A DNA stretch of 32,000 nucleotides from Breznakia sp. PF5-3 (GCF_029504745.1 NZ_JAQFIQ010000007.1:36047-68046), one strand, 5' to 3'. Shown: positions 7,351-23,045, counted from the first letter of the stretch. Made by a program: numbers and translations. The notes: generated by a model from the sequence alone, not told the origin.

Positions 7351-7368
7351 GCAAAAAAATATGCAATG

Positions 7369-7407
7369 TGTATTGTTCGGCATTATCGAACGATATACAT
7401 TTTTTTT
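7369..7407 (+). terminator. intrinsic terminator after the acetyltransferase gene
   Basis: tgtat-t-gttcg (7369-7379) pairs with cgaac-gat-ataca (7387-7399) and is followed by T8. Confidence 0.55.
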
Positions 7408-7593: not shown

Positions 7594-8154
7594 ATGAAGA
7601 AACTTAGAATCAGGAGTGAATATGTCATTTTTATTTTGAGAATGTTTGTAATCTTCAGCGTTCTTGTTTTTGTTGTAACTACTTTTATCTTTCGAACGGT
7701 GCGAATCAATGGACAAAGTATGGAACCAACATTACAAAGCGGAGAATATGCATTTTCAAACAGATTGGCAGCAGATGAAGGGAATATCAATCGATTTGAT
7801 GTAATTGTAATTGATAACATTGAAGAAGATTATGTGGTGAAAAGAGTAATTGCACTCCCCAATGAAACCATATCTTACAAAGATGGAAAGTTATATATTA
7901 ATGGTGAATGGTATGAAGAACCATTCTTAGATCAAGAATATATTGCTTTGCATACAATGAATAATCAAATTACTTTTACGCAAAATTTTGGACCAATCAC
8001 ATTAGGTGAAAATGAATATTTTGTACTTGGTGATAACCGATTGAATTCAAAAGACTCTCGGGTCGTTGGTCCAATTCCTGAAAAAGACATTGTTGCAAAA
8101 GATGTAATTGTAGTATATCCGCTAAATAGTATACGTGTAGAAAGTTCCAACTAA
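7594..8154 (+). CDS. lepB: signal peptidase I
   Basis: N-terminal TM helix, catalytic Ser box NGQSMEPTL, Lys box VKRVIALPNETI, and GDNRLNSKDSR. Confidence 0.9.
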   Translation: MKKLRIRSEYVIFILRMFVIFSVLVFVVTTFIFRTVRINGQSMEPTLQSGEYAFSNRLAADEGNINRFDVIVIDNIEEDYVVKRVIALPNETISYKDGKLYINGEWYEEPFLDQEYIALHTMNNQITFTQNFGPITLGENEYFVLGDNRLNSKDSRVVGPIPEKDIVAKDVIVVYPLNSIRVESSN

Positions 8155-8180
8155 TTTTTTAATTATTGGAACCTTTTTTG
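8144..8180 (+). terminator. intrinsic terminator overlapping the lepB stop codon
   Basis: gttccaa (8144-8150) / ttggaac (8166-8172), 15-nt loop, then cTTTTTT. Confidence 0.6.
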
Positions 8181-8196
8181 TTTATTTCCGTCAATA
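8168..8196 (+). promoter_or_regulatory. ECF-type promoter candidate A1 (GGAACCTTTT-N-CGTCAATAT) in front of sigma-fusion gene A
   Basis: GGAACC 8168-8173, 15-nt spacer, CGTCAATA 8189-8196. The same bipartite motif recurs at 14749 and 20787. Confidence 0.55.
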
Positions 8197-8221
8197 TGTT
8201 AAGAAAGGATGAAAATGGAAT

Positions 8222-9547
8222 ATGAGCAGATTGAAAAAAGAAGAGATTCAAAAATTTCTAGATGGAGACGATAGTGTTTTTCCTGAGATTTTTGCTGCTT
8301 ATCGTAATAAGATTAATTATCTTGCGATAGAAATCTTACGAAACCAGGCAGATTGTGAGGAAGTAGTTCAAAATACGTTTATTAAAATCATTACCAAACG
8401 TAAGGATTTACGTGATGCTAGTGCTTTTAATACATGGATTTATCGAATTGCTTACAACGACTGTATGGATATATATCGGCAAAATAAAAAGGGTAAAACA
8501 GGTATGAATAATGACTACACTCTAGAAAATTATTCTGACAACAAAGGAGAGCCAAACGATGTGGTGAGTAAAAAGGCAATTTTAGAAGCAATTCAAAGCG
8601 AAATTGATGGCCTTCCAGAGGATATGAAACAAGTGTGTTTGTTAAGATTCGTTGGTGAATGTAGCCTTGAAGAAATCTCTGAAATCATGAGTATTCCAAA
8701 AGGCACAGTAAAGAGTAGGCTAAACAGGGCAAAAGTAAAACTTCGAGAAGGGCTGGTTGATAAGCATGTGACTCCAGCAATCTATATGTCATTGTCATTT
8801 ACACCTTTGGTATTTAAGTTGTATGCATCGTTAGTAAAACAACAAGAGATGCAACCACTTGTAGAAACAAAAGTTGCTAAAGTTATTGAAAACGCAACAG
8901 GAGTAACAGCAGGAGTAACGGTCGCAAGCGGAGGAATGATTATAGGATTTGGTAGTGCAGTAATAGGAACATCTATATTATTAGCATTATTTGGCACTTA
9001 TACGATTATAAATCCAATTATTGATCAAACGGCTGAAGTTGTAAAAATTGAGGAAATCAATTATTTGAAAGATCTTACAAATGAAAATTTGCAGATTGTT
9101 CTCATGTTCAGTGGAGAACCAGATGCAAAAGATATTAGTATAACATTTGTTGATGAAAATACAACGATCGAGGCTGAATCCGTTGACAATGAAAACTACA
9201 TGTTTGTTGCGAAGGCGAATGGAACATATCATGTAGAGTATGGTGGGGTAGCACAGGATATCAAAGTTGATAACATTGACAAGCAAAGCCCTAAATTGAA
9301 AAGTTTAGAAAAGGAAGAAGGATTACTTAAGATTATAGGTAGTGATGATTTTTCTGGCATTGATTTCGATAAATCATACGTTGAAGAGGGTTCCAATAAG
9401 TTTGATTTGATCAAAATTGATGATACATCTGCATTTTTCAAAGATGCAGTTAAGAAAAAGGCAAAGCTGTATTTGTATGATAAGGTAGGAAATTACCAGG
9501 TCTATGAGATCAATGCAACAGATACAGTGAGCAATACAGATGGGTAG
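8222..9547 (+). CDS. ECF-type sigma-70 family factor fused to a TM helix and a C-terminal extracytoplasmic domain (paralogue A)
   Basis: Region 2: EEVVQNTFIKI..FNTWIYRIAYNDCMDIYRQ. Region 4: LPEDMKQVCLLRFVGECSLEEISEIMSIPKGTVKSRLNRAKVKL. One hydrophobic helix (GGMIIGFGSAVIGTSILLALFG, about 8927-9007) is followed by about 180 aa homologous to the tail of the 21744 gene. Confidence 0.85.
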   Translation: MSRLKKEEIQKFLDGDDSVFPEIFAAYRNKINYLAIEILRNQADCEEVVQNTFIKIITKRKDLRDASAFNTWIYRIAYNDCMDIYRQNKKGKTGMNNDYTLENYSDNKGEPNDVVSKKAILEAIQSEIDGLPEDMKQVCLLRFVGECSLEEISEIMSIPKGTVKSRLNRAKVKLREGLVDKHVTPAIYMSLSFTPLVFKLYASLVKQQEMQPLVETKVAKVIENATGVTAGVTVASGGMIIGFGSAVIGTSILLALFGTYTIINPIIDQTAEVVKIEEINYLKDLTNENLQIVLMFSGEPDAKDISITFVDENTTIEAESVDNENYMFVAKANGTYHVEYGGVAQDIKVDNIDKQSPKLKSLEKEEGLLKIIGSDDFSGIDFDKSYVEEGSNKFDLIKIDDTSAFFKDAVKKKAKLYLYDKVGNYQVYEINATDTVSNTDG

Positions 9548-9647
9548 TTTCATAAAATTAGGTCTATGAAACAATACACTGTATATCCATAAAGCAATTT
9601 ATGGAGAAGTGAAAGATTATAAAATTAGAATGGAGGGAGTGAAAGTT

Positions 9648-12600
9648 TTGAGACGTAAATACGTAAAAACATTAAAGATGTTTAAAAGGTGTTTTCTTAC
9701 AGCACTGGCATTAGGTATTACACTTACGGCAATAAACCTGCCAAAAATGGATATCCATGCTCAAACAGAGGATGTTCGCTATGATTTGCAAACGGAATTA
9801 AGCGAAGATAAAAAAGAACTTCGTATTGATTTATTAGCTTATGCAAATAGGAATGATGTTGAAATAACGGCGATTGGTAACCCTGATGGGACCATCACGG
9901 ATGGAGCAAAAACGTCATATGTTTCTGTAACAAATGAAACATTGACATTTGTGGTGAACTACAAAATATTAGAAGAGAAAGATGGAAAAATAAAAGAAAT
10001 CTCAAAGACAAAAGAAGTTGAATATGAGGTGGATCAATTTGGTAAAGAAGAAGAGGCACAGCCTCAAGCATTAAGTGATCCATTGGCACCATTTTCATCT
10101 TTAAAAGCAAATATGAGTTTTAGAAATGCTTTTAATGTATCTCATACAAAAGATGGGTTATACTATCTTTCTGATAATTCTATGGAATTAGGGTATCACT
10201 ATAATGAATATGTGAAATTTTTGCTTAGCAAAGCACGTTGTACTACATCAAAGTATTGGGAAGGCTGGTATGCGAAGTTTGCTGCAGTATCAAAATATAA
10301 AGTTGATTTCTCAAAAGATTTTAAAGTTACAAACGTAATATCTTCAAATCCAACATTATATGGAGATGGGTTCACGTTAGGATTTCAAACAGATCCAAAC
10401 TTTACATATACAACAGGTAAAGGGGGTTCTATAGGAGTTTACCGTAATGGTAGTGACTATGGGGCTCGCAATGGTGTAGTATTTGAAGTTGATTATCATG
10501 ATAACTCTCCAGATGGAATGTGGCATGATATAGGATTAGGTGGAAATCACTTAGCAATTCATACAACGGATGCTTATGGAAATGAATCAACTCCAGTTGC
10601 TTCTTGGTTCGGTGTAAAACACACAGGAAGTCTAACTGCATTCAATGTGACTTGGACAATTACAGATAAAGCTACAAACACTGGGACATTGACATTTACA
10701 TATGGAACATACAATTTGAAATATACAAATTTCAGACCACATGAAGTATTTGGTGGGTCAGTAAACAATCCTACAGCAGCATATTTAACATATACTGGAG
10801 TAATCTTGAAAGATTATGGTTCAAATAACAAACCATTCCAAATCACAATGACAGATTATTCTTATCTTGAAGATGAAGTAACTGCAAGTGATGGATTTAT
10901 TACCCAAACTCAAGCAAAAGCTTTGGCAAACCAAAATGGATTAATTCTTTATAACAATGCATCTGCAGTTTCTACTGCTGGAGATAGTGTTACACCTACG
11001 GTTTCAACACCTGCATGGAGCAACATTAAATCTGGTTTAGTAGGTACTTATGATGTGACATATGCTTATGGAACAGCATCAAAAACAGTAAAATTAAGCG
11101 TAATTAAAGATGGATCAATCATTTCACCAAACAAGGATTTCTCACTTTATGCAGAAAATGCTTCCTTGTTACAAAGTGAAGCAATTGCATTAAGTTCAAT
11201 GAATGATTTAGTATCTGTTCATGATGCAAGTGTAACGATGGCAAATGGAACGCTTCTTGCACCAAATGCAACAACAAGTGCTTGGTCATCAATCAAAGCT
11301 GGGGTTGTAGGAAATTACGTGATTACTTTCTATTATGGAACAGGATCAAACTACACAGCAAAAAACGTTACATTATCAGTTGTTGCTGATAAGAAACATG
11401 AAATATATGCAAGTGATGGATTTATTACCCAATCACAAGCTAAGGCACTTACGAGTATGCAAGGATTTATTCCTTACAACCAAGCAAAAGTAATTACTAA
11501 TGAAGGTGTTACTACGGTGCCAAGTACCGTTGCTACGAACTATTGGAATGAAATTAACACAGGAACAATCGGTTCTTATAACGTTACATATTCTTATGGA
11601 TCAGGAACAGCAAGAGTATCAAAAACAGTAAAATTAAATGTTGTGAAAGATGGAACTGTGTTCCCTCCAGATAACAGTTTTGCATTATATGCAGAAGATG
11701 GTTTTATTAAACAAAGTCAAGCAAAAGCACTTACATCAACAAGCCAATTAATACCTTATAACAATGCGAGCGTAACATTGGCTGATGGAAGTAGTGATGT
11801 ACCATTCGTTAGTTTAAATACTTGGTCAAATATTGTGAGTGGAACGATTGGTAGCTACGATATCGTATATATGTATGGTGCTGGTGCTAACCTTAAATAT
11901 AAAGTTGTGAAATTAAACGTTATTGAAGATGGTGGTATTATTGCACCAGATAAGAGTTTTGCATTATATGCAGATAATGGAACGATTTCACAAACCCAAG
12001 CATCTGCACTTACAGGTACATCACAATTAATCCCTTATAACAATGCGAAAGTAATTTTGGCGAACGGAACACGTGCAGAACCAAATGTATCTGCTCCAAC
12101 GTATAGCGAAATTGTGAGTGGGGTTGTAAAGACTCATAAAGTTACATATAGTTATGGAGTGCTTACAAACAAAGTATCTAAAGAAGTAGACTTACAATTA
12201 ATTGCTGATAAGCGTCATGAAGTTCGCGCAGAAGATGGCTTCATTTATGCAACACAAGCGAAAGCATTAACAAATCAAAGTGAATTAATTCCATTTAATA
12301 GTGCAAGTGTTATAACAAACACTGGTCAAAGTGCACAACCGGTTGTAACAACAGGAAGTTGGGCTAACATTGTAGCTGGGGTAACTGGTTCATATGATAT
12401 TACTTATAGCTATGGAAGTGGAACAACACAAGGATCAAAAACAGTAGTCTTGAATGTTGTACCAGATGGAACAATATTCCCACCAGATAAAGCATTTGCA
12501 GTATATGCAGAAGATGGTTTAATCAATGTGGAACAAGCGAAGAAGTTAACAGCACAAAAAGATCTTATTCCATATAACTCAGCATATGTAATGTTGAAAA

Positions 12601-14645
12601 ATGGAACGATTGTAGATCCAGATGTATCTACTTGGGATTGGGTAAAAATCTCAGCTGGAATTGAAGGAACATATGATGTTAACTATGGTTATACAATTAT
12701 GCCGAATACGGTTCAAAAAGGTGTAAAACTTACTGTAACAAAAGGTACAACACCACCAAGTAATTCATTCTCATTATATGCTAGAGATGGATTTGTATAT
12801 GAAGATCAAGCAAAAGCATTTACTGCCCAAAAAGATATGATTCCATTCAATGATGCTTTTGTAACATTGAAGGATGGATCAAGTGTAGATCCACAAGTTG
12901 CAACACCTCATTGGTCAGCAATTAAGGATGGAACAATTGGTTCATATCCAGTAACATATGGTTATACAAAGGGTAGTGAATCATTATCAAGTGTTGTGAA
13001 ATTGAATGTTGTAGAAAATGGTTCTACCATTTCACCAGGACAAGATTTTGCAATTTATGCTAAGAATGGAATTATTCAACAATCATCTGCACAAGCATTG
13101 ATTAGCTTGAATGATTTAATTCCTTACAATGGTGCAAAAGTTACCCTTAAAGATGGTAGTGAAGCTACGCCAACGGTAACAACAGCAGATTGGACAGCAA
13201 TTCGTGCAGGAGTATTGGGTACATATTCAATTACCTATAGTTATGGTAGTGGTACGAATACAGCATCTAAAGTGGTAACACTAAGAGTAGTACCAGATGG
13301 AAATCCTTCACCAGAAGGAGACTTCATCTTATATGCTTCAAATGGATTCATTTCAAAAGAGCAGGCGATGGCTATTACAAGTCAAAAAGATTTGATTCCA
13401 TATAACAAAGCATCCGTTATCAAGGACGATGGTAGCGATGCAGAACCATCTGTATCAACAACTAGTTATGCAGATATTAAAGCTGGTAAATTAGGTGTTT
13501 ACAATGTAACATATCGTTATGGATTTGGTACAAACTTAGTTTCAAAAACAGTGAAACTTACAGTTCATGATGGTACTCCTTCACCAGGAGGAAATTATGT
13601 ATTAAATGCTAAAGATGGTTTAATTTCTAAAAGCGAAGCAAAAGCATTAAGTTCAACAGCAGACTTAATTGCAATTAACGACGCATCTGTTTGGATGAAT
13701 GATGGATCAACTGATGTTCCAGTGGTTACAATGCTACCACTTAATTGGTTATCTTTAAATGAAGGTATTATCAATAGCTATCCAGTTCTTTATAGTTATG
13801 GAAGTGGTAGTGATTATACACAAAAAACAGTTCGTGTAACAGTGTATGATGATGGTGGTATCATATCTCCAAATAAAGACTTTGTATTAAATGCTAAGAA
13901 TGCAGTATTAACACAAAGTGAAGCAAAAACTTTAACAAGTGCAAGTGACTTAACCGTTTATAATGATGCTCTTGTTAGTTATGCAAATGGTAACAAAGCA
14001 ATTCCAAATACAACAGCTACAGAATTTGCTTCTATTAAAAGTGGTGTAGTAGGAACTTACAATGTAACATATGATTATGGTACAGGATCTAATTACACAG
14101 AAAAAGCAGTGAAATTAGTAGTTGTAAAGGATGGCGCATTGATTGCACCAGATCGTAGTTTTGCGATTTATGCAGAAGATGTAACATTGAATCAAGATGA
14201 GGCACGCGCATTGACAAACAAAAATCAAATTACAAGTTTGGCACACGCGATGGTCTATATTGCAGATGGAACAACAGCAACACCTACGTTGTCACTTCCA
14301 GATTGGGATGATATCAAAGCAGGTATTTCAAATGATTATGCTGCTGATTTCACATATCAAGATGTAACAGGTAGTATTAATATAAAAGTTACGCAAGAAT
14401 ATGTAACAAGATATCTATTTGACTATGATAATAACAAACGTATTGATGTTATTGATTATGCTTATTTTGCAAGTTACTATAGTGGTGCAACACCAATGTC
14501 TCCATTGGCTTGGGCATTAACAGATTACCCACCAGGAGATGGACGTATCGATGTTATCGATTTAGCACACTTTAAACGTCATTACAGCGATTCGACACTT
14601 CCATTGGTTGAAGTAGAAGTACCAGCAGATTGGCGCTTAGAATAA
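9648..14645 (+). CDS. giant secreted protein: signal peptide, small N-terminal module, L-type-lectin-like domain, 13 x ~90-aa repeats, C-terminal dockerin-like module
   Basis: One uninterrupted frame. The track starts at GTG 9609, but TTG 9648 sits 8 nt after GGAGGGAG and yields a normal signal peptide (RRKYVKTLKMFKRCFLTALALGITL). Domain evidence is given in the separate entries. Confidence 0.9.
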   Translation: MRRKYVKTLKMFKRCFLTALALGITLTAINLPKMDIHAQTEDVRYDLQTELSEDKKELRIDLLAYANRNDVEITAIGNPDGTITDGAKTSYVSVTNETLTFVVNYKILEEKDGKIKEISKTKEVEYEVDQFGKEEEAQPQALSDPLAPFSSLKANMSFRNAFNVSHTKDGLYYLSDNSMELGYHYNEYVKFLLSKARCTTSKYWEGWYAKFAAVSKYKVDFSKDFKVTNVISSNPTLYGDGFTLGFQTDPNFTYTTGKGGSIGVYRNGSDYGARNGVVFEVDYHDNSPDGMWHDIGLGGNHLAIHTTDAYGNESTPVASWFGVKHTGSLTAFNVTWTITDKATNTGTLTFTYGTYNLKYTNFRPHEVFGGSVNNPTAAYLTYTGVILKDYGSNNKPFQITMTDYSYLEDEVTASDGFITQTQAKALANQNGLILYNNASAVSTAGDSVTPTVSTPAWSNIKSGLVGTYDVTYAYGTASKTVKLSVIKDGSIISPNKDFSLYAENASLLQSEAIALSSMNDLVSVHDASVTMANGTLLAPNATTSAWSSIKAGVVGNYVITFYYGTGSNYTAKNVTLSVVADKKHEIYASDGFITQSQAKALTSMQGFIPYNQAKVITNEGVTTVPSTVATNYWNEINTGTIGSYNVTYSYGSGTARVSKTVKLNVVKDGTVFPPDNSFALYAEDGFIKQSQAKALTSTSQLIPYNNASVTLADGSSDVPFVSLNTWSNIVSGTIGSYDIVYMYGAGANLKYKVVKLNVIEDGGIIAPDKSFALYADNGTISQTQASALTGTSQLIPYNNAKVILANGTRAEPNVSAPTYSEIVSGVVKTHKVTYSYGVLTNKVSKEVDLQLIADKRHEVRAEDGFIYATQAKALTNQSELIPFNSASVITNTGQSAQPVVTTGSWANIVAGVTGSYDITYSYGSGTTQGSKTVVLNVVPDGTIFPPDKAFAVYAEDGLINVEQAKKLTAQKDLIPYNSAYVMLKNGTIVDPDVSTWDWVKISAGIEGTYDVNYGYTIMPNTVQKGVKLTVTKGTTPPSNSFSLYARDGFVYEDQAKAFTAQKDMIPFNDAFVTLKDGSSVDPQVATPHWSAIKDGTIGSYPVTYGYTKGSESLSSVVKLNVVENGSTISPGQDFAIYAKNGIIQQSSAQALISLNDLIPYNGAKVTLKDGSEATPTVTTADWTAIRAGVLGTYSITYSYGSGTNTASKVVTLRVVPDGNPSPEGDFILYASNGFISKEQAMAITSQKDLIPYNKASVIKDDGSDAEPSVSTTSYADIKAGKLGVYNVTYRYGFGTNLVSKTVKLTVHDGTPSPGGNYVLNAKDGLISKSEAKALSSTADLIAINDASVWMNDGSTDVPVVTMLPLNWLSLNEGIINSYPVLYSYGSGSDYTQKTVRVTVYDDGGIISPNKDFVLNAKNAVLTQSEAKTLTSASDLTVYNDALVSYANGNKAIPNTTATEFASIKSGVVGTYNVTYDYGTGSNYTEKAVKLVVVKDGALIAPDRSFAIYAEDVTLNQDEARALTNKNQITSLAHAMVYIADGTTATPTLSLPDWDDIKAGISNDYAADFTYQDVTGSINIKVTQEYVTRYLFDYDNNKRIDVIDYAYFASYYSGATPMSPLAWALTDYPPGDGRIDVIDLAHFKRHYSDSTLPLVEVEVPADWRLE
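10101..10884 (+). other. L-type (legume-like, ConA-fold) lectin-like domain
   Basis: YGDGFTLGFQTDPN...GKGGSIGVY...ARNGVVFEVDYHDNSPDGMWHDIGLGGNHLAIHT follows the remembered consensus aDGlaF...gggG.lG...n..vaVEFDt..N...D....HigI. Confidence 0.55.
10887..14380 (+). repeat. 13 tandem in-frame copies of a ~90-aa (~270-bp) module
   Basis: The recurrent pattern is LYA-DGFI-Q-QAKALT----LIPYN-A-V-L-DG----P-V----W--I--G--GSYDVTYSYG-G----K-VKLNVV-DG. The copies are diverged at DNA level. Confidence 0.85.
14418..14588 (+). other. dockerin-like module (two Ca-loop/helix segments)
   Basis: FDYDNNKRIDVIDYAYFASYY ... GDGRIDVIDLAHFKRHY. Asp/Asn sit at loop positions 1, 3, 5, 9 and 12, as in dockerin EF-hand-like repeats. 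Confidence 0.7.
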
Positions 14646-14700
14646 GCGAATATCGTAAATTTACATCATCAATTGATGTAGAAAGTATAGCTTTAGGTAA

Positions 14701-14728
14701 AGAGGATGCTAACGCATTCTCTTTTTTT
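14701..14728 (+). terminator. intrinsic terminator after the lectin/dockerin gene
   Basis: agaggatgc (14701-14709) / gcattctct (14714-14722): 9 bp including one G:U pair, loop taac, then a T-run of 6-7. Confidence 0.75.
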
Positions 14729-14748
14729 ACATTTTTTTATGAATTTAT

Positions 14749-14777
14749 GGAACCTTTTGCGCTGGATTCCGTCGATA
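14749..14777 (+). promoter_or_regulatory. ECF-type promoter candidate A2 (GGAACCTTTT-N-CGTCGATAT) in front of the cohesin-like gene cluster
   Basis: GGAACC 14749-14754, 15-nt spacer, CGTCGATA 14770-14777. It lies downstream of the 14701 terminator and about 55 nt before ATG 14835. Confidence 0.55.
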
Positions 14778-14834
14778 TTACAGAAAGGAGCATTTTACAT
14801 TGTAATTTTTATTTTATGTAAAGAGGAGGACGAA

Positions 14835-16367
14835 ATGAAATTGAAAATAAAGAGTAATAAATTCAAGATCCTGGCAGTTGTAGTTTTGGCTGCTATTGTG
14901 GCAATCCCAAGTATGTTGGCAGCAAAGCCTATGGATACGAAAGCGGATGAAGTAGATGGCGAACCTACTTTTGATATTGCACCAATACATCAGGTAACTA
15001 GAAATGATGGAGGAGGAGCATATGGAACACATGCTCAACAAAGCTATGTAGAAGATGGTGTTCAATATTATCGTAATGGCGATATTATTGAAGTAAGCAT
15101 CATGCTTCCTAAAGGACACGGTGCGACCGTATTCCAAGATGTTGTAAAATATGACGAAGAGAAATTAACATTAATTTCACCTTTCACAGATATTAAAGCA
15201 ACATTATCTAAAAACTATTTAGATAAAAGATGGTCAACAGAAGTGTCAAACCCAAATGCAGATACTTCACGTATTTTAGTATTTGGATCAGCAGCAGATT
15301 TTACAACTGGTGCTGAATACCAAGGTGGTAGTGTTGCTAGAATGTATTTCCGCGTTAATAATAATGTGGAATCTGATGCAGGTACAGCAATTACATTTGA
15401 ATTCCCAGAATTCCAAACCGCTGGATATTCAAATGGAAAAGTTGTATATACACACAGAGGATATGATGCAAATAACGATGCAGCTACTGCATTCTATCAA
15501 GCAGAACCAGTTACAATATATGCAAAAACACCTTCAAAAACAGTAAATGCACCAACCCTTAACTTGAAGAATAGTTCAGCAACTATTTATGAAGGAGATT
15601 TATTTGATCCAGCTTCATACATAAGCAATGCTTCTTGTGAGGTTGATAAATCAGTAAGCAAAGACACTGTTGATATTAGTGAAGGAACTGGAGTTTATAC
15701 AAAACATCAACCAGCAGCTGGAACTTATGTTTATAAATACAGCGTAACAAGTAGTACAGGAAAATCAACAGAGAAACAATTGTCTTTAAAAGTAACAGCA
15801 AGAACATATACAGTTGCTTCTATCGATGTAGATTCTAAAAAAATATCATTGCCTGTTGGAACAGCAAGTTCTGATTTAGAAGCAATGATTAATGAGATGA
15901 AAAAAGAAGACTTTAATGTAACTATTACTTGTAATGATGGTTCTAAATTTGTTGTTCCAGGAAAAGTATTGAATGGAAAAACAGATACTTACCGTATTGA
16001 TGAAAACGATAAGTTATTAGCACAAACATTTAATGTTAACTTTACATTAGCATTGCCACTTGTTTCTTATGGAACAGATGGATCAAGAATTGTAACGCCA
16101 TACAATGGAAGTTCAAGTTTTGTAAGTAATGTTGGAAATGGAAGAGCGGATGCAAAAGTTCCTGTTATTATCGGTACAGGTAATTCAGGAGGAAACAATA
16201 CTGGAGGAAATTCTTCAGGAAAACCATCTACTGCACCTACAGCAGGAAGTAGTAATGGTAGTGGTTCTGCAGCTTCAACAGGGGATACAACAAATGTAAC
16301 ATTCCTTGCAGTATTAGCTATTTTATCAGCAGGATTTATCGTACGTTCAAAATTTAAAAAACAATAA
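14835..16367 (+). CDS. surface protein: signal peptide, cohesin-like domain, Ig-like region, G/S/N-rich linker, C-terminal sorting-signal-like tail
   Basis: The real start is ATG 14835, after aagaggagga. The track's 14706 extension crosses a terminator and a promoter. Signal peptide KILAVVVLAAIVAIPSMLAA. The tail is STGDTTN plus a hydrophobic stretch plus RSKFKKQ. Confidence 0.85.
   Translation: MKLKIKSNKFKILAVVVLAAIVAIPSMLAAKPMDTKADEVDGEPTFDIAPIHQVTRNDGGGAYGTHAQQSYVEDGVQYYRNGDIIEVSIMLPKGHGATVFQDVVKYDEEKLTLISPFTDIKATLSKNYLDKRWSTEVSNPNADTSRILVFGSAADFTTGAEYQGGSVARMYFRVNNNVESDAGTAITFEFPEFQTAGYSNGKVVYTHRGYDANNDAATAFYQAEPVTIYAKTPSKTVNAPTLNLKNSSATIYEGDLFDPASYISNASCEVDKSVSKDTVDISEGTGVYTKHQPAAGTYVYKYSVTSSTGKSTEKQLSLKVTARTYTVASIDVDSKKISLPVGTASSDLEAMINEMKKEDFNVTITCNDGSKFVVPGKVLNGKTDTYRIDENDKLLAQTFNVNFTLALPLVSYGTDGSRIVTPYNGSSSFVSNVGNGRADAKVPVIIGTGNSGGNNTGGNSSGKPSTAPTAGSSNGSGSAASTGDTTNVTFLAVLAILSAGFIVRSKFKKQ
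14961..15531 (+). other. cohesin-like domain, copy 1
   Basis: GDIIEVSIMLP..ATVFQDVVKYDEEKLTLIS..RILVFGSA..GGSVARMYFRV..GTAITFEF, compared with remembered CipA cohesin GDTVNIPVRF..CDFVYSYDPNVLEIIEI..KIIVFLFA..GVFATIVAKV..SVIKFVEV. Confidence 0.6.
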
Positions 16368-16381
16368 AAGAAAAGACAGAT

Positions 16382-16412
16382 GTAGAAAAGGTGTTTTATA
16401 CATCTTTTCTAC
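16382..16412 (+). promoter_or_regulatory. intergenic stem-loop without U-tract (two alternative registers)
   Basis: gtagaaaag (16382-16390) pairs with cttttctac (16404-16412). Alternatively agatgta (16378-16384) pairs with tacatct (16399-16405). It is followed directly by the RBS aggaggg. Confidence 0.4.
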
Positions 16413-16427
16413 CATGTAGGAGGGAAA

Positions 16428-19400
16428 ATGAAAAAATTCTTTAAATTATTTATCGCTGCATTTATAGCAGTAACATGTATTGTTCCTTTACAAAGTATTT
16501 CAGCGGCTTATGGAGATCCAGTAGAGCCAATTTACCAAATTTCACGTAATGATGGTGGAGGGAAATATGGAACACATAAGAACCCTGATTATAAAGAGGG
16601 AACTACACAATATTACCGTGATGGAGATATTATCGAGGTAGATTTCAGATTACCAGCTGATTCAGGAGTTCAAATTTATAACCAAGTTATTAAATATGAC
16701 TCAGATCAGTTAGATTTATTATCATCAGATACAGATATTACAGGTACTTTATCATCTACTTTCACAAGTAAGAATTGGTCAAGTACAACAGCAAGAGACA
16801 ATAATGACAATGAAAAAATCTTAGTTTATGGGGGAAGTAATAACTTTGGAAACCCTGATACAAAAGATTATACAGGTGGAACGATTGCTAAGGTTTACTT
16901 CAAAGTAAAAAATGGAGTTGAATCAACAGCAGGAACACCAATTACATTTGAATTTATGAATTTTCAAACAGCAGAGTTTAAAAATAACAAAGTTTCTTAT
17001 ACACATATAGGATATGATCCTAACAACGATGCAGGAACGGTATACTATACAGCTCCTTCACAAACCATTCAAGTAAAGAAACCAAGTGTAACATTTAGTG
17101 CTAATGATGGATTTATTACACAAAGCCAAGCAAAAGCATTAAATACAAAGAATGATTTAAAAGCTTATAATGATGTAAGTGCAAAATTAACTGATGGCAC
17201 TAATATTGATGTGACAACAGATGCACAAAACTTCAATGATATTAAAGCTGGAAAAATTGGTTCTTATGATGTGACATATGGATATACACATGATGGAAAT
17301 TCAGATAGTAAAAAAGTAAAATTAAATGTAGTATCTGATGATGCAGTTATCTCACCAGAGAAAAATTTTGCTTTATCAGCAGAACATGCATTTATTACTG
17401 CATCGGATGCGAAAAAGTTAACGAATAAAACACAATTGATTTCACTTAACAATGCAAAAGTAACATTGAAAAATGGTACTAACGCTACACCTAATGTAGA
17501 TGCACCTGCATTTGCTTCTATTCAAGCAGGAAGTGTTGGAACTTACGAAGTTACTTATAGTTATGGAAGTGGGTCTGATACAGCAAGTAAAAAAGTGTTT
17601 GTAACGGTTGTGAAAGATGGTTCGGTGATTTCACCTAACAAAGATTTCTCACTTTATGCAAAACATGGATTTATTAAGAATACAGAAGCTAAAAATTTAA
17701 CAAGTAGAACTCAATTGATTCCATATAACAATGCAGAAGTTACACTTGTAAATGGAGATAAAAGAGATCCTAGACCAACAGTAACAGCTGCTGAATGGTT
17801 ATCAATTACTTCTGGTATTAAAGGAAGTTACAATGTTCTTTATGAATATGGTGATGGAGCAAATGAAACAAGCTTGGTTGTTAAAATAACAGTCATTGAT
17901 GAAAACGATCCAATCTCACCAAACAAAGAAGCAAGTCTATCTGCACAAGATGTTGAGCTTAGTGAAACAGAAGCAAAAGCGCTTACATCAAAGAATGATT
18001 TGATTGCTTTAAATAAAGCGTCTGTTACATTATCTGACGGTTCTGTGGCAACACCAACGATAGCAAGTGTTGATTATGCTAGTATAGTATCGGGTAAAAT
18101 TGGAATTTATCCAATTACATATACATATGGTAGTGGTCAAGGAAAAGTTGATAAGACAGTAAATGTAATCGTTAAAGAAGATAAAAAACATGTAATTACA
18201 TATGAAGATAAGATTATTACTGTTGATCAAGCAAAAGCATTATCTAGTAAAGATGATCTTAGAGTGGTAAACAATGTTCAAGTAACAGCAATTGATGGAT
18301 CACATCCAAATGCAGTTGTTGATGCACCAACATGGAGTTCTATTAAAGATGGTAAATTAGGAACATACACAGTTACTTATAGTTATGGATACGGAGATAA
18401 ATTAGTATCTGTAAATGCAAAAGTTACAATCGTTCCAAATGGTTCAGAAATTGATGATAACGCAAGTTTATATGCGCAAAATGGATTCCTTGAACAATCA
18501 TCTGCAAAAGCACTAGTAACTAGAAATGATTTAATTCCTTATAATGCAGCGTCAGTTACATTATTAAGTGGTGGAACAGCAACGCCAACGGTTGGAATGA
18601 GCGCAGGAGATTGGTACTTATTGTCGGCAGGAGAATTAGGTTCATATGATGTTGTTTATTCATATGCAAGTTTAAGCAAACGTGTTCTTGCAACAGTAAT
18701 TAAAGATGGATCTATCGTTTCTGAAGATAAGACAGCAAGTTTATATGCAGAAAATGCATTTATTGAATCAAGCAATGCTAAGAAATTAGCAAATAAAGAA
18801 GCACTTAGAGCATATAACAAAGCGTCTGTAACATTAATTGATGGTAGAACAGCGAACGCAACAGTAGATGTTGCAGCTGCTGATTGGTTAGCAATCCAAC
18901 AAGGAACAGTTGGAGCATATGACATACTATATACATATGGAAGTGGAGATGGACAAGTTAGCAAGCGTGTAAAAATTGTTGTTATCGATGATGATCCAAT
19001 CATTTCTCAAGATGGGAAAGTTGCATTGAATGCAGTTGATGGTGAAATTGCGGATACGGATGCAAAGAAAGTTACAAGCAAAGAAGACTTGATTCCATAT
19101 AACAGTGCAAAAGTTACATTGGAAGATGGAACTATCGCTAAATTGGATGTAACAATATCTACAAGTAGCTTAAATGCTATTAAAGCAGGTACGTTAGGTA
19201 CTTATACTGTTACATACTCTTATGGAAGTGTTGGAAGCCCAAGTTATGTAAGTAAAACAGTAAAATTAGAAGTTGTAATTAAAACAAGAGCAATTCATAT
19301 GTTTGACTATGATGATAACAAACGTATTGATGTTATTGACTTAGCACATTTCAATAGAATTTATTCTAATTCTATGAATGTTTCTGCATATGATTTAATG

Positions 19401-19523
19401 TTAACTGACTTCAACAAAGATAAACGTGTTGATGTTATTGATTTAACACAGTTTAAATATTACTATTCTAATTCATTGATTCTTCCACCAACAGTGGATG
19501 TACCAGTTGAAATAATTCCATAA
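16428..19523 (+). CDS. secreted protein carrying both a cohesin-like domain and a dockerin-like module, separated by 8 x ~90-aa repeats
   Basis: RBS aggaggg. Signal peptide FIAAFIAVTCIVPLQSISA. Domain evidence is given in the separate entries. Confidence 0.9.
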   Translation: MKKFFKLFIAAFIAVTCIVPLQSISAAYGDPVEPIYQISRNDGGGKYGTHKNPDYKEGTTQYYRDGDIIEVDFRLPADSGVQIYNQVIKYDSDQLDLLSSDTDITGTLSSTFTSKNWSSTTARDNNDNEKILVYGGSNNFGNPDTKDYTGGTIAKVYFKVKNGVESTAGTPITFEFMNFQTAEFKNNKVSYTHIGYDPNNDAGTVYYTAPSQTIQVKKPSVTFSANDGFITQSQAKALNTKNDLKAYNDVSAKLTDGTNIDVTTDAQNFNDIKAGKIGSYDVTYGYTHDGNSDSKKVKLNVVSDDAVISPEKNFALSAEHAFITASDAKKLTNKTQLISLNNAKVTLKNGTNATPNVDAPAFASIQAGSVGTYEVTYSYGSGSDTASKKVFVTVVKDGSVISPNKDFSLYAKHGFIKNTEAKNLTSRTQLIPYNNAEVTLVNGDKRDPRPTVTAAEWLSITSGIKGSYNVLYEYGDGANETSLVVKITVIDENDPISPNKEASLSAQDVELSETEAKALTSKNDLIALNKASVTLSDGSVATPTIASVDYASIVSGKIGIYPITYTYGSGQGKVDKTVNVIVKEDKKHVITYEDKIITVDQAKALSSKDDLRVVNNVQVTAIDGSHPNAVVDAPTWSSIKDGKLGTYTVTYSYGYGDKLVSVNAKVTIVPNGSEIDDNASLYAQNGFLEQSSAKALVTRNDLIPYNAASVTLLSGGTATPTVGMSAGDWYLLSAGELGSYDVVYSYASLSKRVLATVIKDGSIVSEDKTASLYAENAFIESSNAKKLANKEALRAYNKASVTLIDGRTANATVDVAAADWLAIQQGTVGAYDILYTYGSGDGQVSKRVKIVVIDDDPIISQDGKVALNAVDGEIADTDAKKVTSKEDLIPYNSAKVTLEDGTIAKLDVTISTSSLNAIKAGTLGTYTVTYSYGSVGSPSYVSKTVKLEVVIKTRAIHMFDYDDNKRIDVIDLAHFNRIYSNSMNVSAYDLMLTDFNKDKRVDVIDLTQFKYYYSNSLILPPTVDVPVEIIP
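16506..17073 (+). other. cohesin-like domain, copy 2
   Basis: It aligns residue for residue with copy 1: SRNDGGGKYGTH, YYRDGDIIEVDFRLP, IYNQVIKYDSDQLDLLS, KILVYGGS, GGTIAKVYFKV, GTPITFEF, YTHIGYDPNNDA. Confidence 0.6.
17091..19281 (+). repeat. 8 tandem in-frame copies of the same ~90-aa module as in 10887-14380
   Basis: Examples are NDGFITQSQAKALNTKNDLKAYN...GSYDVTYGY and LYAKHGFIKNTEAKNLTSRTQLIPYNNAEV...GSYNVLYEYG. Confidence 0.8.
19302..19469 (+). other. dockerin-like module
   Basis: FDYDDNKRIDVIDLAHFNRIY ... DFNKDKRVDVIDLTQFKYYY. Confidence 0.7.
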
Positions 19524-19552
19524 ACCTTATGATAATGAAGGGAAGGTTATTT

Positions 19553-20629
19553 ATGAGAAAACTAAAAAAACAAATAGCTATTCTTACAGTATTGATAATT
19601 GCATTCATTACTTGTGCTAGCCCTTTACAGGCTGTGCATTATTCACAAGTGCCAAGTAATAATGGGGGACACCGTTTGCAAAATTCAATTGCATATGTAG
19701 GAGGTGGAAGAGCACCATTTACAGAAAATGGAGTGACGTATTATAATGCAGGAAATGTGATCGAGCTAACGGTCACATTACCTGCTAATACATACGCAGT
19801 ATCTTTGCAAGAAATCATTACCTATGATTTAAATCAAGTAGATTTGGTAACAAGTTTTAATGATATTCGTCAAACCTTTGGGCAATCCCTTTTGAATGAA
19901 GGATGGGCACAAGATGTATTTAAGATGAATGGAAACAATAATCAAATTTTACTTTCTGCAGCAGGAAGTGATTGGACTAATCACTCAAGTATTGCTGGTG
20001 GAGTTGTAGGAAAGATACGTTTTCGAATCAAAGAACAAACAACAACTAATGTTGGAACAAATATCAACATTAATTTTGTTTATCAAATTGCAGGAGCAAA
20101 ACCAAATGGAAAAGGGTTGGCATATATTCATGCTGGATATGATCCAAGCAATGAAGGCGGTACCTATCAAGTATCTGCACCAACGATTTCAATTGCGGCT
20201 CATAAGATACCATCTGCACCAACGACACCTACCAATCCTGAAAAACCTACTGATCCAGTCGTGGATTATCATCCAAGTGTTGTGATCGATAAGGAAATCA
20301 GTGAAAGTAAGAAAAAAGAGATTGCGGCAATTACAGCGAAACGGGATTATTCATTCGCAAAATCGAATGATTTTATGAATGGAAAGAATTCGTATCGAAA
20401 TATTGCGAAAATGTTGATTGATCAAATGGTAAAGACAAAAGATAAAATCAAATATCAAACATATGAGTTTAAAGATCAATATTTAGATATAAAGGCTAAG
20501 AAGACAATTGTGAAAACTACTTGTTATACACATTATCTTTATATCGGGATGAGTTTTGTAGTAATTTTTGTAACATATGGTTATAAAAAATATTTAGAAG
20601 CGAATCGTAAAGTGAAATGGAGGTCTTAA
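19553..20629 (+). CDS. membrane-anchored cohesin-like protein: signal peptide, cohesin-like domain, Pro/Thr linker, C-terminal TM helix plus basic tail
   Basis: The probable start is MRKLKKQ at 19553, after gggaagg. Linker PSAPTTPTNPEKPTDP. C-terminal YLYIGMSFVVIFVTYGY followed by KKYLEANRKVKWRS. Confidence 0.8.
   Translation: MRKLKKQIAILTVLIIAFITCASPLQAVHYSQVPSNNGGHRLQNSIAYVGGGRAPFTENGVTYYNAGNVIELTVTLPANTYAVSLQEIITYDLNQVDLVTSFNDIRQTFGQSLLNEGWAQDVFKMNGNNNQILLSAAGSDWTNHSSIAGGVVGKIRFRIKEQTTTNVGTNININFVYQIAGAKPNGKGLAYIHAGYDPSNEGGTYQVSAPTISIAAHKIPSAPTTPTNPEKPTDPVVDYHPSVVIDKEISESKKKEIAAITAKRDYSFAKSNDFMNGKNSYRNIAKMLIDQMVKTKDKIKYQTYEFKDQYLDIKAKKTIVKTTCYTHYLYIGMSFVVIFVTYGYKKYLEANRKVKWRS
19634..20207 (+). 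other. cohesin-like domain, copy 3 (most divergent)
   Basis: YYNAGNVIELTVTLP..VSLQEIITYDLNQVDLVTS..QILLSAAG..GGVVGKIRFRI..GTNININF..YIHAGYDPSNEGG. Confidence 0.55.
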
Positions 20630-20632
20630 TTT

Positions 20633-20782
20633 ATGAACTGTGGATATGACATGATGGCTTTGATATTATTCTTTATTACCGTGTTTGTTTGTAGCTTTTA
20701 TATCATGAAATTAAAGCGTCAACATGCACAAAGTAATGTCTTACATGATCAATTTTCAAAATATTTTAAAAAAAATGATTAA
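20633..20782 (+). CDS. possible 49-aa single-TM small protein (not in the ORF track)
   Basis: ATG 20633 lies about 10 nt after ggagg and 4 nt after the upstream stop. Sequence: MNCGYDMMALILFFITVFVCSFYIMKLKRQHAQSNVLHDQFSKYFKKND. Confidence 0.4.
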   Translation: MNCGYDMMALILFFITVFVCSFYIMKLKRQHAQSNVLHDQFSKYFKKND

Positions 20783-20786
20783 AAAC

Positions 20787-20816
20787 GGAACCTTTTTCGG
20801 ATTATAAGCGTCTCAA
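20787..20816 (+). promoter_or_regulatory. ECF-type promoter candidate A3 (GGAACCTTTT-N-CGTC)
   Basis: GGAACC 20787-20792, 16-nt spacer, CGTCTCAATA from 20809. The spacer is one nt longer than in A1 and A2. Confidence 0.4.
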
Positions 20817-20992
20817 TAATGAAGGGTAAATTATTTATCCTTTGCGGATATAGTTATTTTGCAATACAACAATTACTATTAAATATCATAACCGAATATT
20901 TATTCAATCGAAATTAATCCTTTCTTTATTCGATGGTATCAATTAGCCCTCAGTAGTTGGATGTATACTAAATGATTATCTTTCGCAACTAG

Positions 20993-21073
20993 ATATCGCT
21001 ATCAACTAATTAAATACGCCTTCCCTGAACAATACATGTATTTAGTTAACCCCGATAGCGATATATTTTTTTT
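20993..21073 (+). terminator. long imperfect hairpin plus T8 abutting the RBS of the next gene (attenuator-like)
   Basis: atatcgctatc (20993-21003) pairs perfectly with gatagcgatat (21054-21064). Further inner pairing is possible (aactaa/ttagtt, taaatac/gtattta). T-run 21066-21073, then GGAGG 21074-21078 and ATG 21085. Confidence 0.5.
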
Positions 21074-21084
21074 GGAGGAATAAA

Positions 21085-21546
21085 ATGAAAAAAATTATAA
21101 TTAGCTCAATTTGCTTTGTTGCATTACTAGCTGGATGTTCTTCTGGTAGCAAGGGAAGTGAAAAAGTTTGTACAATGACACAAGGAGCTAGTGATGAATT
21201 AGAAGAAAAAATTACCATTTCTTATGATGGAGATACAGTAACAACCATTGTTTCAAAGACTACCATTGATGTAGAAAAAACGAAAACAGGTACAACAATG
21301 GAGGATTTAGAAAAGCTTGCAAAAGATGTTGATAAAGTTTATAACGCTATCAAGGGTGTAAAGTATACATATGAAAGCAAAGATAAGAAATTCTATGAAA
21401 CGATAACTGTAGATATCAAGGAAGAGAATATGGAAGAATTACAAAACAAGGGAATGATTAATATGTATGTTGATGAAGATGGAAAAATCTTAAAAGCTGA
21501 CAAATTGATTGATTTCTTGAAAGATTCAGGAATGAAGTGTAAATAA
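21085..21546 (+). CDS. YehR/DUF1307-like lipoprotein
   Basis: Lipobox FVALLAGCSSGS. About 150 aa with ITISYDGDTVTT...IKGVKYTYESKDKKFYETITVD and a C-terminal ...LKDSGMKCK, matching the pattern I recall for DUF1307 lipoproteins. Confidence 0.7.
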   Translation: MKKIIISSICFVALLAGCSSGSKGSEKVCTMTQGASDELEEKITISYDGDTVTTIVSKTTIDVEKTKTGTTMEDLEKLAKDVDKVYNAIKGVKYTYESKDKKFYETITVDIKEENMEELQNKGMINMYVDEDGKILKADKLIDFLKDSGMKCK

Positions 21547-21696: not shown

Positions 21697-21743
21697 TATA
21701 TGATAGGTTATATTTTTGTCATGTATTGAAAGGGGGCGATGCT

Positions 21744-23045
21744 ATGATGAGAAAAGTGGATGTGAAATATGTAGAAGCACTTCAACGCGGTGATTTGGAG
21801 GCTTTTAATGTAATTTACGATTATTATAAGAATTCCATTTATTTTTTTGTACTTAAATTTGTTGGTAATCAACAAGATGTTGAGGAAGTAGTACAAGATA
21901 CGTTTGTCAATGCATATCGAAATATCAATATGTTGAAATCTTTGGATGCTTTTCATTCATGGCTTTTTAGTATTGCTTACAGCCAAGCACAAATGGTATA
22001 TCGAAGAAAATCACATGGTAATCTGATTGATGGGAATCTAGAAGAAATTGCTAAGGTTGAAGATTCACAAAAAAAAGAAATTGAAAATAAAGATATTCTT
22101 GGAGCTGTAGAAGATGAATTGTATAAATTGCCTGCAAAATATTCACAAGTAGGACAATTGAAATACTTTGAAGAACTTTCGGTAAAAGAAATTGCAGAGG
22201 TCTTAAGTATTCCAGTCGGAACGGTTAAAACTAGATTAATGCGAATTAGAAAGATGATATCTCCTGGTTTAGAAAAAAGAGGATATACACCAAAGAAATA
22301 TTTTGGGTTTGCATTTACACCGCTTCTTTACCAAGCCTTTACAGCAATGATTAACAATCATACATTGTCTGCTGAGCAATCAGTGTCAACGTTCAATACG
22401 ATTCAAGAGAAGATTACTACTGGAGGAGGAACGGCCTTGTTGAGTGGTGTTTCTGCGACAGGTGCTATGGCATCTGCAGGTGTTAGTGCAGTAAATAAAG
22501 CAATGATTGGAGCAACTCTTATGGCAAGTGCAGTAGGTGGTGTTGTCATTTATCAAAACTTACATACGGAAGCTGCAGTAATTGAAGATATTGTATATTA
22601 TCAAGATCTAACAAATAAGGATATTGAAGTTGCGGTTCTTTGCAATAAAGAAATTGGTAGTGCGGATATTGATGTGTCGTATAACGAAACACCAGTCGTA
22701 TTTCGTATAGAGGATAATAAGGTATTGTTTGATGCCAAAGATAATGGTGAATATAAGATTAGTTTAAATGATGAAAATCAAGTCCTTACCATTGATAATA
22801 TTGATAAGGAAGTTCCATTGATTCATAATGTGGCATATGATAACGATTTACTAAAAATTGAATTTGATGATGCAAATGCAATAGATTATCAAAAATCATA
22901 TGTAAACTTTAATGAAAAATCATATACAATTTCAAAGCAAGGAACCGTTCATGAAAAATTGGATGGTGAGTTTGAAGTTGTGTTGTATGACTTGGCAGGG
23001 AATAAAGTCGGCTATAAGATAGACTTAAAGACATACAAAAATTAG
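21744..23045 (+). CDS. ECF-type sigma-70 family factor fused to a TM helix and a C-terminal extracytoplasmic domain (paralogue B)
   Basis: Start ATG 21744, after aaaggggg. Region 2: EEVVQDTFVNAY..FHSWLFSIAYSQAQMVYRR. Region 4: LPAKYSQVGQLKYFEELSVKEIAEVLSIPVGTVKTRLMRIRK. TM helix AMIGATLMASAVGGVVIY. The tail is homologous to paralogue A (DLTN, NGxY, IDNIDKxxP, LLKI, IDxxKSYV, LYDxxGN). Confidence 0.85.
   Translation: MMRKVDVKYVEALQRGDLEAFNVIYDYYKNSIYFFVLKFVGNQQDVEEVVQDTFVNAYRNINMLKSLDAFHSWLFSIAYSQAQMVYRRKSHGNLIDGNLEEIAKVEDSQKKEIENKDILGAVEDELYKLPAKYSQVGQLKYFEELSVKEIAEVLSIPVGTVKTRLMRIRKMISPGLEKRGYTPKKYFGFAFTPLLYQAFTAMINNHTLSAEQSVSTFNTIQEKITTGGGTALLSGVSATGAMASAGVSAVNKAMIGATLMASAVGGVVIYQNLHTEAAVIEDIVYYQDLTNKDIEVAVLCNKEIGSADIDVSYNETPVVFRIEDNKVLFDAKDNGEYKISLNDENQVLTIDNIDKEVPLIHNVAYDNDLLKIEFDDANAIDYQKSYVNFNEKSYTISKQGTVHEKLDGEFEVVLYDLAGNKVGYKIDLKTYKN

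Follow-up and report, generated by a model that had tools for sequence, protein, structure and literature searches.

A four-gene cluster in Breznakia sp. PF5-3, a gut bacterium of the Erysipelotrichales, likely encodes an enzyme-free cohesin-dockerin system for displaying adhesins on the cell surface. The cluster lies in a 32-kb stretch of DNA (32,000 nucleotides, hereafter the window), and its four genes are here called A, B, C and D. Their products matched exactly proteins of Breznakia sp. PF5-3 (GCA_029504775.1, contig JAQFIR010000007), in which all four are annotated as "hypothetical protein". B, C and D carry cohesin domains, and A and C end in dockerin modules. The original prediction made on this DNA had placed four adjacent genes between positions 9648 and 20629. 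Gene calling recovered the four genes, all in the same orientation, although the whole unit is larger and extends from ~7594 to 21546 when its regulatory and accessory genes are included (Table 1). Computationally, we established the identities, folds and polarity of the modules, the conserved gene content of eight loci, the enrichment of a promoter-like motif and the co-variation of modules within loci.

Divergent cohesin domains in B, C and D

B, C and D each carry an N-terminal domain of ~190 aa, which exceeds a type I cohesin by about 50 residues. As had been predicted, the three domains are paralogous, and they aligned over their full length, with 50% identity between B and C (BLASTP E 2e-65) and 32% between B and D (BLASTP E 2e-32).

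A profile built from these three sequences retrieved cohesins from the PDB at E values of 0.4-0.9 only. Against 1.84 billion representative proteins, the same profile found only 19 clusters of the family; the next matches were multi-cohesin scaffoldins (P0021-P0024; E 8e-7 to 4e-4), which Pfam confirmed as such. An RHS-repeat protein, P0020, also appeared among the weak matches and was treated as a false positive. In the 21-member family, 13 members matched Pfam Cohesin at E<=1, the best at 4.8e-6. The profile of the 21 members retrieved, by hmmsearch against the PDB, type II cohesins from ScaB of Acetivibrio cellulolyticus (3l8q, E 1e-6; 3fnk, E 2.7e-4). Moreover, its alignment by HHalign to nine Pfam-verified cohesin domains gave a probability of 97.7% (E 1.4e-12, 97 columns). 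The proposed hidden Markov model (HMM) check against Pfam Cohesin therefore had a divided outcome, since the curated cut-off was missed but a link to real cohesins emerged once a family profile had been built.

The structural expectation of a jelly-roll was borne out for B. The AlphaFold2 model of its domain was nearly all beta (predicted local distance difference test, pLDDT, 72.6; pTM 0.73) and showed, at moderate confidence, the flattened beta-sandwich of cohesins. The top 50 Foldseek matches of this model in the PDB were all cohesins, of types I, II and III (E 3e-6 to 4e-4), and the best was the ScaC adaptor cohesin 5lxv (E 3e-6). Because the family profile, HHalign and Foldseek agreed where single-sequence searches did not decide, we conclude that the three domains are true but very divergent cohesin homologues that form a subfamily of their own.

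Dockerin modules in A and C

The C-terminal tails of A and C shared 48% identity (E 8e-21). As anticipated, both exceeded the gathering score of Pfam Dockerin_1 (PF00404; 22.9 bits) when scanned alone, with 24.8 bits for A and 27.0 bits for C, whereas full-length scans gave 13.3 and 18.2 bits, below the cut-off. Such a drop presumably explains why some but not all paralogues are named dockerin proteins at NCBI. The orthologues P0002, P0017, P0005 and P0003 scored 30.5, 26.6, 25.2 and 23.0 bits, respectively, and all eight tails tested matched Dockerin_1 (best E 4.4e-13). Additionally, a profile of the eight tails retrieved known dockerins from the PDB, including 8x39 (E 1.8e-10) and 2vn5 (E 1.9e-6), with 2vn5, 4fl4 and 1daq at 1e-5 to 1e-6.

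The tails show the tandem 12-residue Ca2+ loop plus helix that defines a dockerin, with the exception of the second loop of A. The Ca2+-loop strings quoted in the original prediction were present in both tails. The accompanying claim of D or N at loop positions 1, 3, 5, 9 and 12 held for both loops of C (DYDDNKRIDVID and DFNKDKRVDVID) and for the first loop of A (DYDNNKRIDVID, which is canonical), but not for the second loop of A. Folding of the two dockerins, and their binding to cohesins, may depend on Ca2+.

Polarity, stalks, anchors and cargo

The polarity of the modules was invariant: every cohesin lies at the N-terminus, as does the cargo head of A, and every anchor or dockerin lies at the C-terminus. 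A single type of Big_3-like repeat of ~92 aa was found by jackhmmer in 13 copies in A and eight copies in C, and both arrays run directly into the dockerin without a linker. The architecture of D was kept in P0006-P0009 and P0014-P0016. The middle region of B (~210 aa) matched no family.

B and D had been claimed to be anchored by different means, and both putative anchors were seen in the sequence. B ends in ...AASTGDTTN, 17 hydrophobic residues and then RSKFKKQ, and D ends in a hydrophobic transmembrane (TM) helix followed by KKYLEANRKVKWRS. The orthologues of B share the motif xTGDTT(N/D). In a broader form, in which [A/G/S/K][S/T/A]TGD[T/N]T[N/D] precedes a hydrophobic stretch and a tail of basic residues, the signal recurred in the B orthologues, in a leucine-rich repeat (LRR) protein of the window (tail at 26740-26844; AAGDTTD) and in an FctA-like pilin at a paralogous locus of the same genome (L005, 4043-4690; PSTGDNTD). 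Recurrence of this non-canonical TGD signal in three places suggests a lineage-specific sortase motif, at which B may be cleaved.

A shows no anchor to the wall or the membrane apart from the dockerin. Its N-terminal domain matched NCBIfam NF053816, the N-domain of the Listeria "putative cellulose-binding protein LCP", at E 4.8e-17 (62.5 bits against a cut-off of 175 bits). The description of the cargo as a lectin-like domain plus immunoglobulin (Ig)-like repeats held weakly: the repeats matched Big_3, and the head matched Pfam Lectin_L-type_dom (PF18483) below threshold. The head may bind glycans. No glycoside hydrolase (GH) or carbohydrate-binding module family was matched in A-D, in agreement with the absence claimed earlier.

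A gene set conserved across eight loci

Seven further loci were retrieved and compared with the window: L003 from a Breznakia metagenome-assembled genome (MAG); L005 (GCA_029504775.1, contig JAQFIR010000009) and L009, both paralogous loci of the PF5-3 genome; L007 from Thomasclavelia; and L004, L010 and L011 from metagenomic contigs. The phylogenetic survey that had been proposed thus returned the same A/B/C/D set in eight loci, and the named relatives came from the Erysipelotrichales only (Breznakia, Thomasclavelia and Coprobacillaceae MAGs). In six-frame HMM scans, every one of the eight loci contained exactly three cohesin open reading frames (ORFs), with the B, C and D architectures, and a dockerin on C. 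A dockerin was also found on the A-type protein in all seven loci in which A was captured. No further cohesins or dockerins were detected by these scans in the eight stretches. The PF5-3 genome itself carries three paralogous sigma/A/B/C/D loci, whose dockerin recognition residues differ (VI, SV/MV and SY).

The cargo head was the variable part of the set. It was lectin-like, at sub-threshold scores against PF18483, in the window, L003 and L011. The A-type protein of L005 (6697-9957) has a head of different sequence that looks like a beta-helix by eye, and that of L010 (1852-5037) has a third kind of head. In both proteins the LCP-like N-domain, repeats and dockerin are retained, so the heads appear exchangeable between loci. 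L005 also adjoins an FctA/DUF7601 pilin cluster that carries its own Peptidase_S26 gene.

Co-variation within loci

The dockerins of A and C (docA and docC) were more alike within than between loci (within-locus identity 47.2%, permuted 37.8%), a value reached by 6 of 5040 permutations. The cohesins of B and C (cohB and cohC) behaved in the same way (50.1% against 39.0%; 1 of 40320 permutations), and their identity rose to 81% in Thomasclavelia. An ancient A/C split with independent descent predicts no such excess, which points instead to gene conversion or to selection for a shared partner. The corresponding values for the cohesin of D (cohD) were 29.9% against 28.5% with cohB (2763 of 40320 permutations) and 29.0% against 28.9% with cohC (17583 of 40320 permutations).

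Residues 10-11 of both dockerin segments, which are classic specificity positions of type I dockerins, were locus-specific and common to A and C in five of seven loci. They read VI/VI in both docA and docC of the window, and SV/MV in both dockerins of L005. In L004 they read LL/LL in docA and IL/IL in docC, in L007 IS/IG and IA/VG, and in L011 IL/VL and VL/VL, respectively. In L009, where docA was not captured, docC read SY/SY. A predicted cohesin strand equivalent to beta-6 also carried matching locus-specific signatures in B and C. The strand was placed on the dockerin-binding face by analogy with the CipA cohesin, and we treat these signatures as a lead only. Mirror-tree correlations of the cohesin and dockerin distance matrices were weak, with too few loci, and were not relied on.

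Since the B and C cohesins, like the A and C dockerins, are more alike within than between loci, the sequences suggest one specificity group per locus, {cohB, cohC} x {docA, docC}, and hence three orthogonal systems per cell. Binding between these cohesins and dockerins, and the assignment of partners, would follow this grouping.

Proposed assembly

In the assembly that we propose, A-D would be exported through Sec. B would be fixed to the cell wall by its sortase-type C-terminal signal, and D would be held in the membrane by its C-terminal helix, each presenting one N-terminal cohesin that faces away from the cell. The dockerin of C would plug into the cohesin of an anchor, so that eight Ig-like repeats would form a stalk with the cohesin of C at its distal tip. 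The dockerin of A would in turn plug into the cohesin of C, or directly into that of B, with the L-lectin-like head at the tip of 13 more repeats. The simplest chain would thus consist of wall-anchored B (or membrane-anchored D), C and A, with the head atop at least 21 Ig-like repeats. The product would be a long, non-covalent, Ca2+-dependent adhesin fibril running from the wall through B, one or more copies of C, and A to the ligand. The polarity of every protein (cohesin distal, anchor or dockerin proximal, head N-terminal) fits such hierarchical docking.

A bolder version, which we hold only tentatively and consider doubtful, makes C the shaft of a non-covalent pilus-like fibre. Given the likeness of the B and C cohesins and of the A and C dockerins within a locus, each C molecule should be able to dock, through its dockerin, onto the cohesin of a second C, giving B-(C)n-A. 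C would then polymerise head-to-tail from a B base and be capped by A, which has a dockerin, no cohesin and a swappable head. PF5-3 would possess three such fibres, orthogonal to one another and each with its own membrane-tethered extracytoplasmic function (ECF) sigma factor.

Alternative explanations

Several observations weigh against an enzyme-free display system. The isolated B and C domains gave no Pfam Cohesin (PF00963) match, and the isolated D domain scored 18.7 bits (E 0.002), below the gathering score of 24.1 bits. Confidence in the cohesin model was moderate only (pLDDT 72.6), and its TM-scores were 0.45-0.6 (0.40-0.58 when normalised by query length). The second Ca2+ loop of A, DYPPGDGRIDVID, reads (D)YPPGDGRIDVID; because of a one-residue insertion its positions 1 and 3 are not canonical, and only positions 5, 9 and 12 are kept. 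The sorting motif of B, A-S-T-G-D-T-T-N, is not a canonical LPXTG, with a TIGR01167 (LPXTG_anchor) score of 13.1 bits against a cut-off of 15.9, and no sortase gene was found in the window. The head of A reached 31.8 bits against a cut-off of 78.3 for PF18483 (E 1.6e-7, profile positions 38-178 of 215); its single-sequence AlphaFold2 model had a pLDDT of 32, and it matched no PDB sequence. The cohesin of D did not co-vary with those of B and C, and in L003 and L010 the dockerins of A and C differ at the recognition residues. Finally, the absence of a dockerin-bearing enzyme applies to the eight loci, the rest of the genome not having been searched for other dockerin proteins.

Some of these points could be accommodated if the modules were homologous to cohesins and dockerins but did not bind one another, the cohesin-like sandwich serving as a ligand-binding or structural head and the dockerin-like EF-hand pair as a Ca2+-dependent stabiliser or a wall-binding tail. 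The great divergence of the family, its failure to reach the Pfam cut-off and the lack of co-variation of the D cohesin with the dockerins would agree with this, and non-cellulosomal modules of unknown function that resemble cohesins and dockerins are common in genome surveys. We nevertheless regard this explanation as improbable. It does not account for the strict 3:2 co-occurrence of the modules in one operon across eight loci, for a polarity that is exactly what docking requires, for the homogenisation of cohB with cohC and of docA with docC within each locus, or for a protein A whose only anchor is its dockerin.

We give a low probability to a second alternative, in which B, C and D mainly dock dockerin-bearing glycoside hydrolases or peptidases encoded elsewhere, as the scaffold of a cellulosome, amylosome or mucinolysome, and A is an accessory binding subunit. 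The characterised natural cohesin-dockerin systems of gut Firmicutes all organise enzymes (PMC5301203, PMC4611034, PMC12997984), and our dockerin scans were confined to the eight loci. In L010, a 2334-aa GH31/F5_F8_type_C protein with a sorting-signal-like tail is encoded directly after D (11477-18481), but it has no dockerin. A dockerin-bearing enzyme was found in none of the eight loci, each B, C and D protein has a single cohesin, and the cluster contains no multi-cohesin scaffoldin, so the hallmarks of a cellulosome or another enzyme-organising complex are missing from these loci, and the earlier view of a modular adhesin display rather than a cellulosome fits. Furthermore, the dockerin residues differ among the three PF5-3 loci and match within each locus, which agrees with closed, locus-specific sets rather than a shared enzyme pool, and the cohesin family comprised only 19 clusters among the 1.84 billion representatives.

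That the modules only look like cohesins and dockerins by chance, or through the composition of low-GC, repeat-rich genes for surface proteins, as sub-threshold single-sequence Pfam and PDB matches and the RHS-repeat protein P0020 among the weak profile matches might imply, is refuted to the point of being negligible by the paralogue E values (2e-32 to 2e-65), the profile-profile and Foldseek results, dockerin tails above the curated cut-off and orthologues conserved in other genera.

Regulation and accessory genes

The gene upstream of A encodes a candidate regulator, an ECF sigma factor that continues into a TM segment and an extracytoplasmic domain. The protein scored 94.8 bits against TIGR02937 (cut-off 42.9), which places it in the ECF family, and the hydrophobic stretch GGMIIGFGSAVIGTSILLALFGTYTII is visible in its translation. 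The C-terminal TM segment and the extracytoplasmic domain are additions to the usual ECF sigma architecture. A sigma-fusion gene of this type was found in or beside every locus for which the upstream region was captured. A comparison of the extracytoplasmic domain with the N-domains of the cargo proteins revealed no resemblance (E 5.7 and 15).

The motif GGAACC-N14-17-CGTC occurs three times in the window, against 0.01 copies expected, and all three copies are intergenic and on the plus strand; three copies were reached in none of 100 shuffles. Motifs of the GAAC...CGTC type are typical of ECF promoters. The copies precede the sigma-fusion gene, B and the DUF1307 gene, and in L005 a copy precedes A. 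This placement suggests an autoregulated sigma regulon of three transcription units, namely sigma-A, B-C-D-small ORF and DUF1307. Judging from the sequence, the three motifs are probably promoters of the adjacent membrane-tethered ECF sigma factor, which would drive expression of the cluster from them. The second motif lies just after a terminator-like hairpin (a consensus match only) that follows A. A longer B ORF starting at 14706, as first called, was discarded, since its start falls inside this hairpin; B instead starts at an ATG at 14835, preceded by the ribosome-binding site AAGAGGAGGA.

In the window, a gene for a type I signal peptidase immediately precedes the sigma-fusion gene. Homologues lie beside the sigma gene in L003 (a gene end), L007, L009 and L011. 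Its translation contains SMEPT, KRV and GDNRLNSKDSR, which we read by eye as the presumed catalytic boxes of the S26 family. In Bacillus subtilis, signal peptidase acts as the site-1 protease on RsiV. The enzyme could serve here as a dedicated leader peptidase for A-D or as a site-1 protease for the sigma fusion. Downstream, the small single-TM protein encoded 3 nt after D is conserved: homologous ORFs of 44-59 aa follow D in L003, L005, L007 and L009. The DUF1307 lipoprotein, also encoded in L003, L004, L007, L009 and L011, is a probable member of the regulon.

The surroundings of the unit were also inspected. Just upstream, a gene of the aminoglycoside 3-N-acetyltransferase family (6529-7350; PF02522, E 1.1e-44) is followed by a strong terminator-like hairpin (7365-7401). 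Downstream, a second surface-protein cassette occupies 21726-32000 and opens with another sigma fusion (21726-23045), paralogous to that at 8222-9547 (29% identity, E 2e-17) and likewise with a TM segment and a ~180-aa extracytoplasmic Ig-like domain; each of the two heads a surface-protein operon. The cassette continues with a protein that has Flg_new repeats and ends in a TM helix (23057-24226), the LRR/Ig-like protein (24223-26847) and a giant ORF that starts at 26956 and runs past the end of the window; the latter has Pectate_lyase_5 and Ig-like matches and is 1681 aa long in the source record.

Table 1. Features of the cohesin-dockerin unit and its regulatory and accessory genes in the window
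Feature	Position	Strand	Description
Signal peptidase	7594-8154	+	Type I, Peptidase_S26 (Pfam PF10502, E 1.2e-43)
ECF-type promoter motif 1	8168-8192	+	GGAACC-N15-CGTC before sigma-fusion gene; equivalent in L003, L011
Sigma fusion	8222-9547	+	ECF sigma factor (Sigma70_r2, r4_2), TM segment, ~180-aa extracytoplasmic Ig-like domain
Gene A	9630-14645	+	Dockerin-bearing cargo, 1671 aa; signal peptide, N-domain, head, repeats, dockerin
A, N-domain	~9672-10070	+	LCP-like
A, head	~10284-10718	+	L-type-lectin-like
A, repeats	10878-14408	+	13 Big_3-like repeats
A, dockerin	14403-14645	+	Two Ca2+-loop plus helix segments; one-residue insertion in second loop
Terminator-like hairpin	14699-14724	+	11-bp stem with 4 GC pairs, then T-run TTTTTACATTT
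ECF-type promoter motif 2	14749-14773	+	Before B; equivalent in L003, L009, L010, L011
Gene B	14835-16367	+	Anchoring protein, 510 aa; signal peptide, cohesin, middle region, G/S/N-rich linker, tail
B, cohesin	14961-15531	+	
B, tail	16275-16364	+	Sorting-signal-like
Gene C	16428-19523	+	Adaptor, 1031 aa; signal peptide, cohesin, repeats, dockerin
C, cohesin	16506-17073	+	
C, repeats	17094-19283	+	8 Big_3-like repeats
C, dockerin	19281-19523	+	Two Ca2+ loops
Gene D	19553-20629	+	Membrane-anchored cohesin protein, 358 aa; signal peptide, cohesin, Pro-rich linker, ~90-aa conserved region, TM helix, basic tail
D, cohesin	19634-20207	+	
D, TM helix	~20531-20584	+	
Small conserved protein	20633-20782	+	Single TM, 49 aa
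ECF-type promoter motif 3	20787-20812	+	Before DUF1307 gene; similar in L003, L009; one mismatch in L011
DUF1307 lipoprotein	21085-21546	+	PF06998, E 2e-10; lipobox-like N-terminus

Comparison with known systems

The literature searched described no cohesin-dockerin system from Breznakia or the Erysipelotrichia. The original prediction had known of no characterised system with this architecture. Its enzyme-free set does set the Breznakia cluster apart, yet precedents for its parts exist in ScaE/CttA and ScaC of Ruminococcus flavefaciens and in Sca2/Amy4 of R. bromii. In R. flavefaciens, ScaE, a sortase-anchored protein with a single cohesin, displays the non-enzymatic cellulose-binding protein CttA through an X-dockerin, and ScaC is an adaptor with one cohesin and one dockerin (PMC5301203). 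In R. bromii, Sca2 combines a cohesin with a sortase signal and Amy4/Sca1 combines a cohesin with a dockerin; self-recognition of Amy4 has been shown and its multimerisation predicted (PMC4611034).

The closest known system is the sca cluster of R. flavefaciens. Each cluster encodes a protein with one cohesin for anchoring to the wall, an adaptor with a cohesin and a dockerin, and a binding protein without catalytic activity, the wall anchoring and the binding being predicted roles in Breznakia. The ScaC cohesin (5lxv) was the best structural match of the B domain. In R. flavefaciens the binding protein is held at the surface by its C-terminal dockerin and serves in adhesion, and the same is proposed for its Breznakia counterpart. 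The sca system also carries ~200 dockerin-bearing enzymes on the multi-cohesin proteins ScaA and ScaB, and the Breznakia cluster has neither. Conversely, the Breznakia proteins have long Big_3-like arrays as stalks and an L-lectin-like head, a second, membrane-anchored cohesin protein, cohesins of a distinct subfamily that is confined to the Erysipelotrichales and missed by Pfam, and a fused ECF sigma factor as the proposed regulator.

The amylosome of R. bromii likewise has a single-cohesin protein anchored by sortase, as is predicted for B, and a protein that unites cohesin and dockerin, and Amy4 is a precedent for the proposed chaining of C. However, Amy4 has amylase activity and belongs to a starch-degrading complex whose components are scattered in the genome, whereas Breznakia C is purely structural and is encoded in a compact operon, of which the genome holds three diverged, orthogonal copies. 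Unlike both Ruminococcus systems, the Breznakia operon carries its own fused sigma factor and signal peptidase.

Two further comparisons are more distant. The modules of Clostridium perfringens (2jh2, 2w1n and 2jnk/2ozn, all among our PDB matches) are an instance of cohesins and dockerins outside plant cell-wall degradation in a host-associated Firmicute. They join secreted enzymes (toxins) into complexes and, unlike the Breznakia set, have no cell anchors, repeat-stalk adaptor or lectin cargo. Sortase-assembled Gram-positive pili offer the same division of roles, with a tip-only part (A), a donor-and-acceptor part (C) and a wall-anchored base (B); a signal-peptidase gene is near, and the second paralogous locus adjoins an FctA-type pilin cluster. 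The joints of these pili are covalent, whereas those proposed here would be non-covalent and Ca2+-dependent, so the likeness is one of analogy only, with no homology to pilins.

With few exceptions, the known role of cohesin-dockerin pairs is to organise enzymes that degrade polysaccharides in Clostridia. The Breznakia locus, by contrast, is a compact, self-contained operon that apparently uses the joint solely to build and display adhesins, and it belongs to a different class, the Erysipelotrichia, which are gut symbionts, with a cohesin subfamily missed by standard models. If the predicted binding is true, cohesin-dockerin joints would serve a wider range of functions than is now known, and one cell would supply three naturally orthogonal pairs for protein engineering. 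In that case the locus would also offer a tractable example of how fibres assemble non-covalently on the surface of a Gram-positive cell, with sensor and sigma regulator in one polypeptide.

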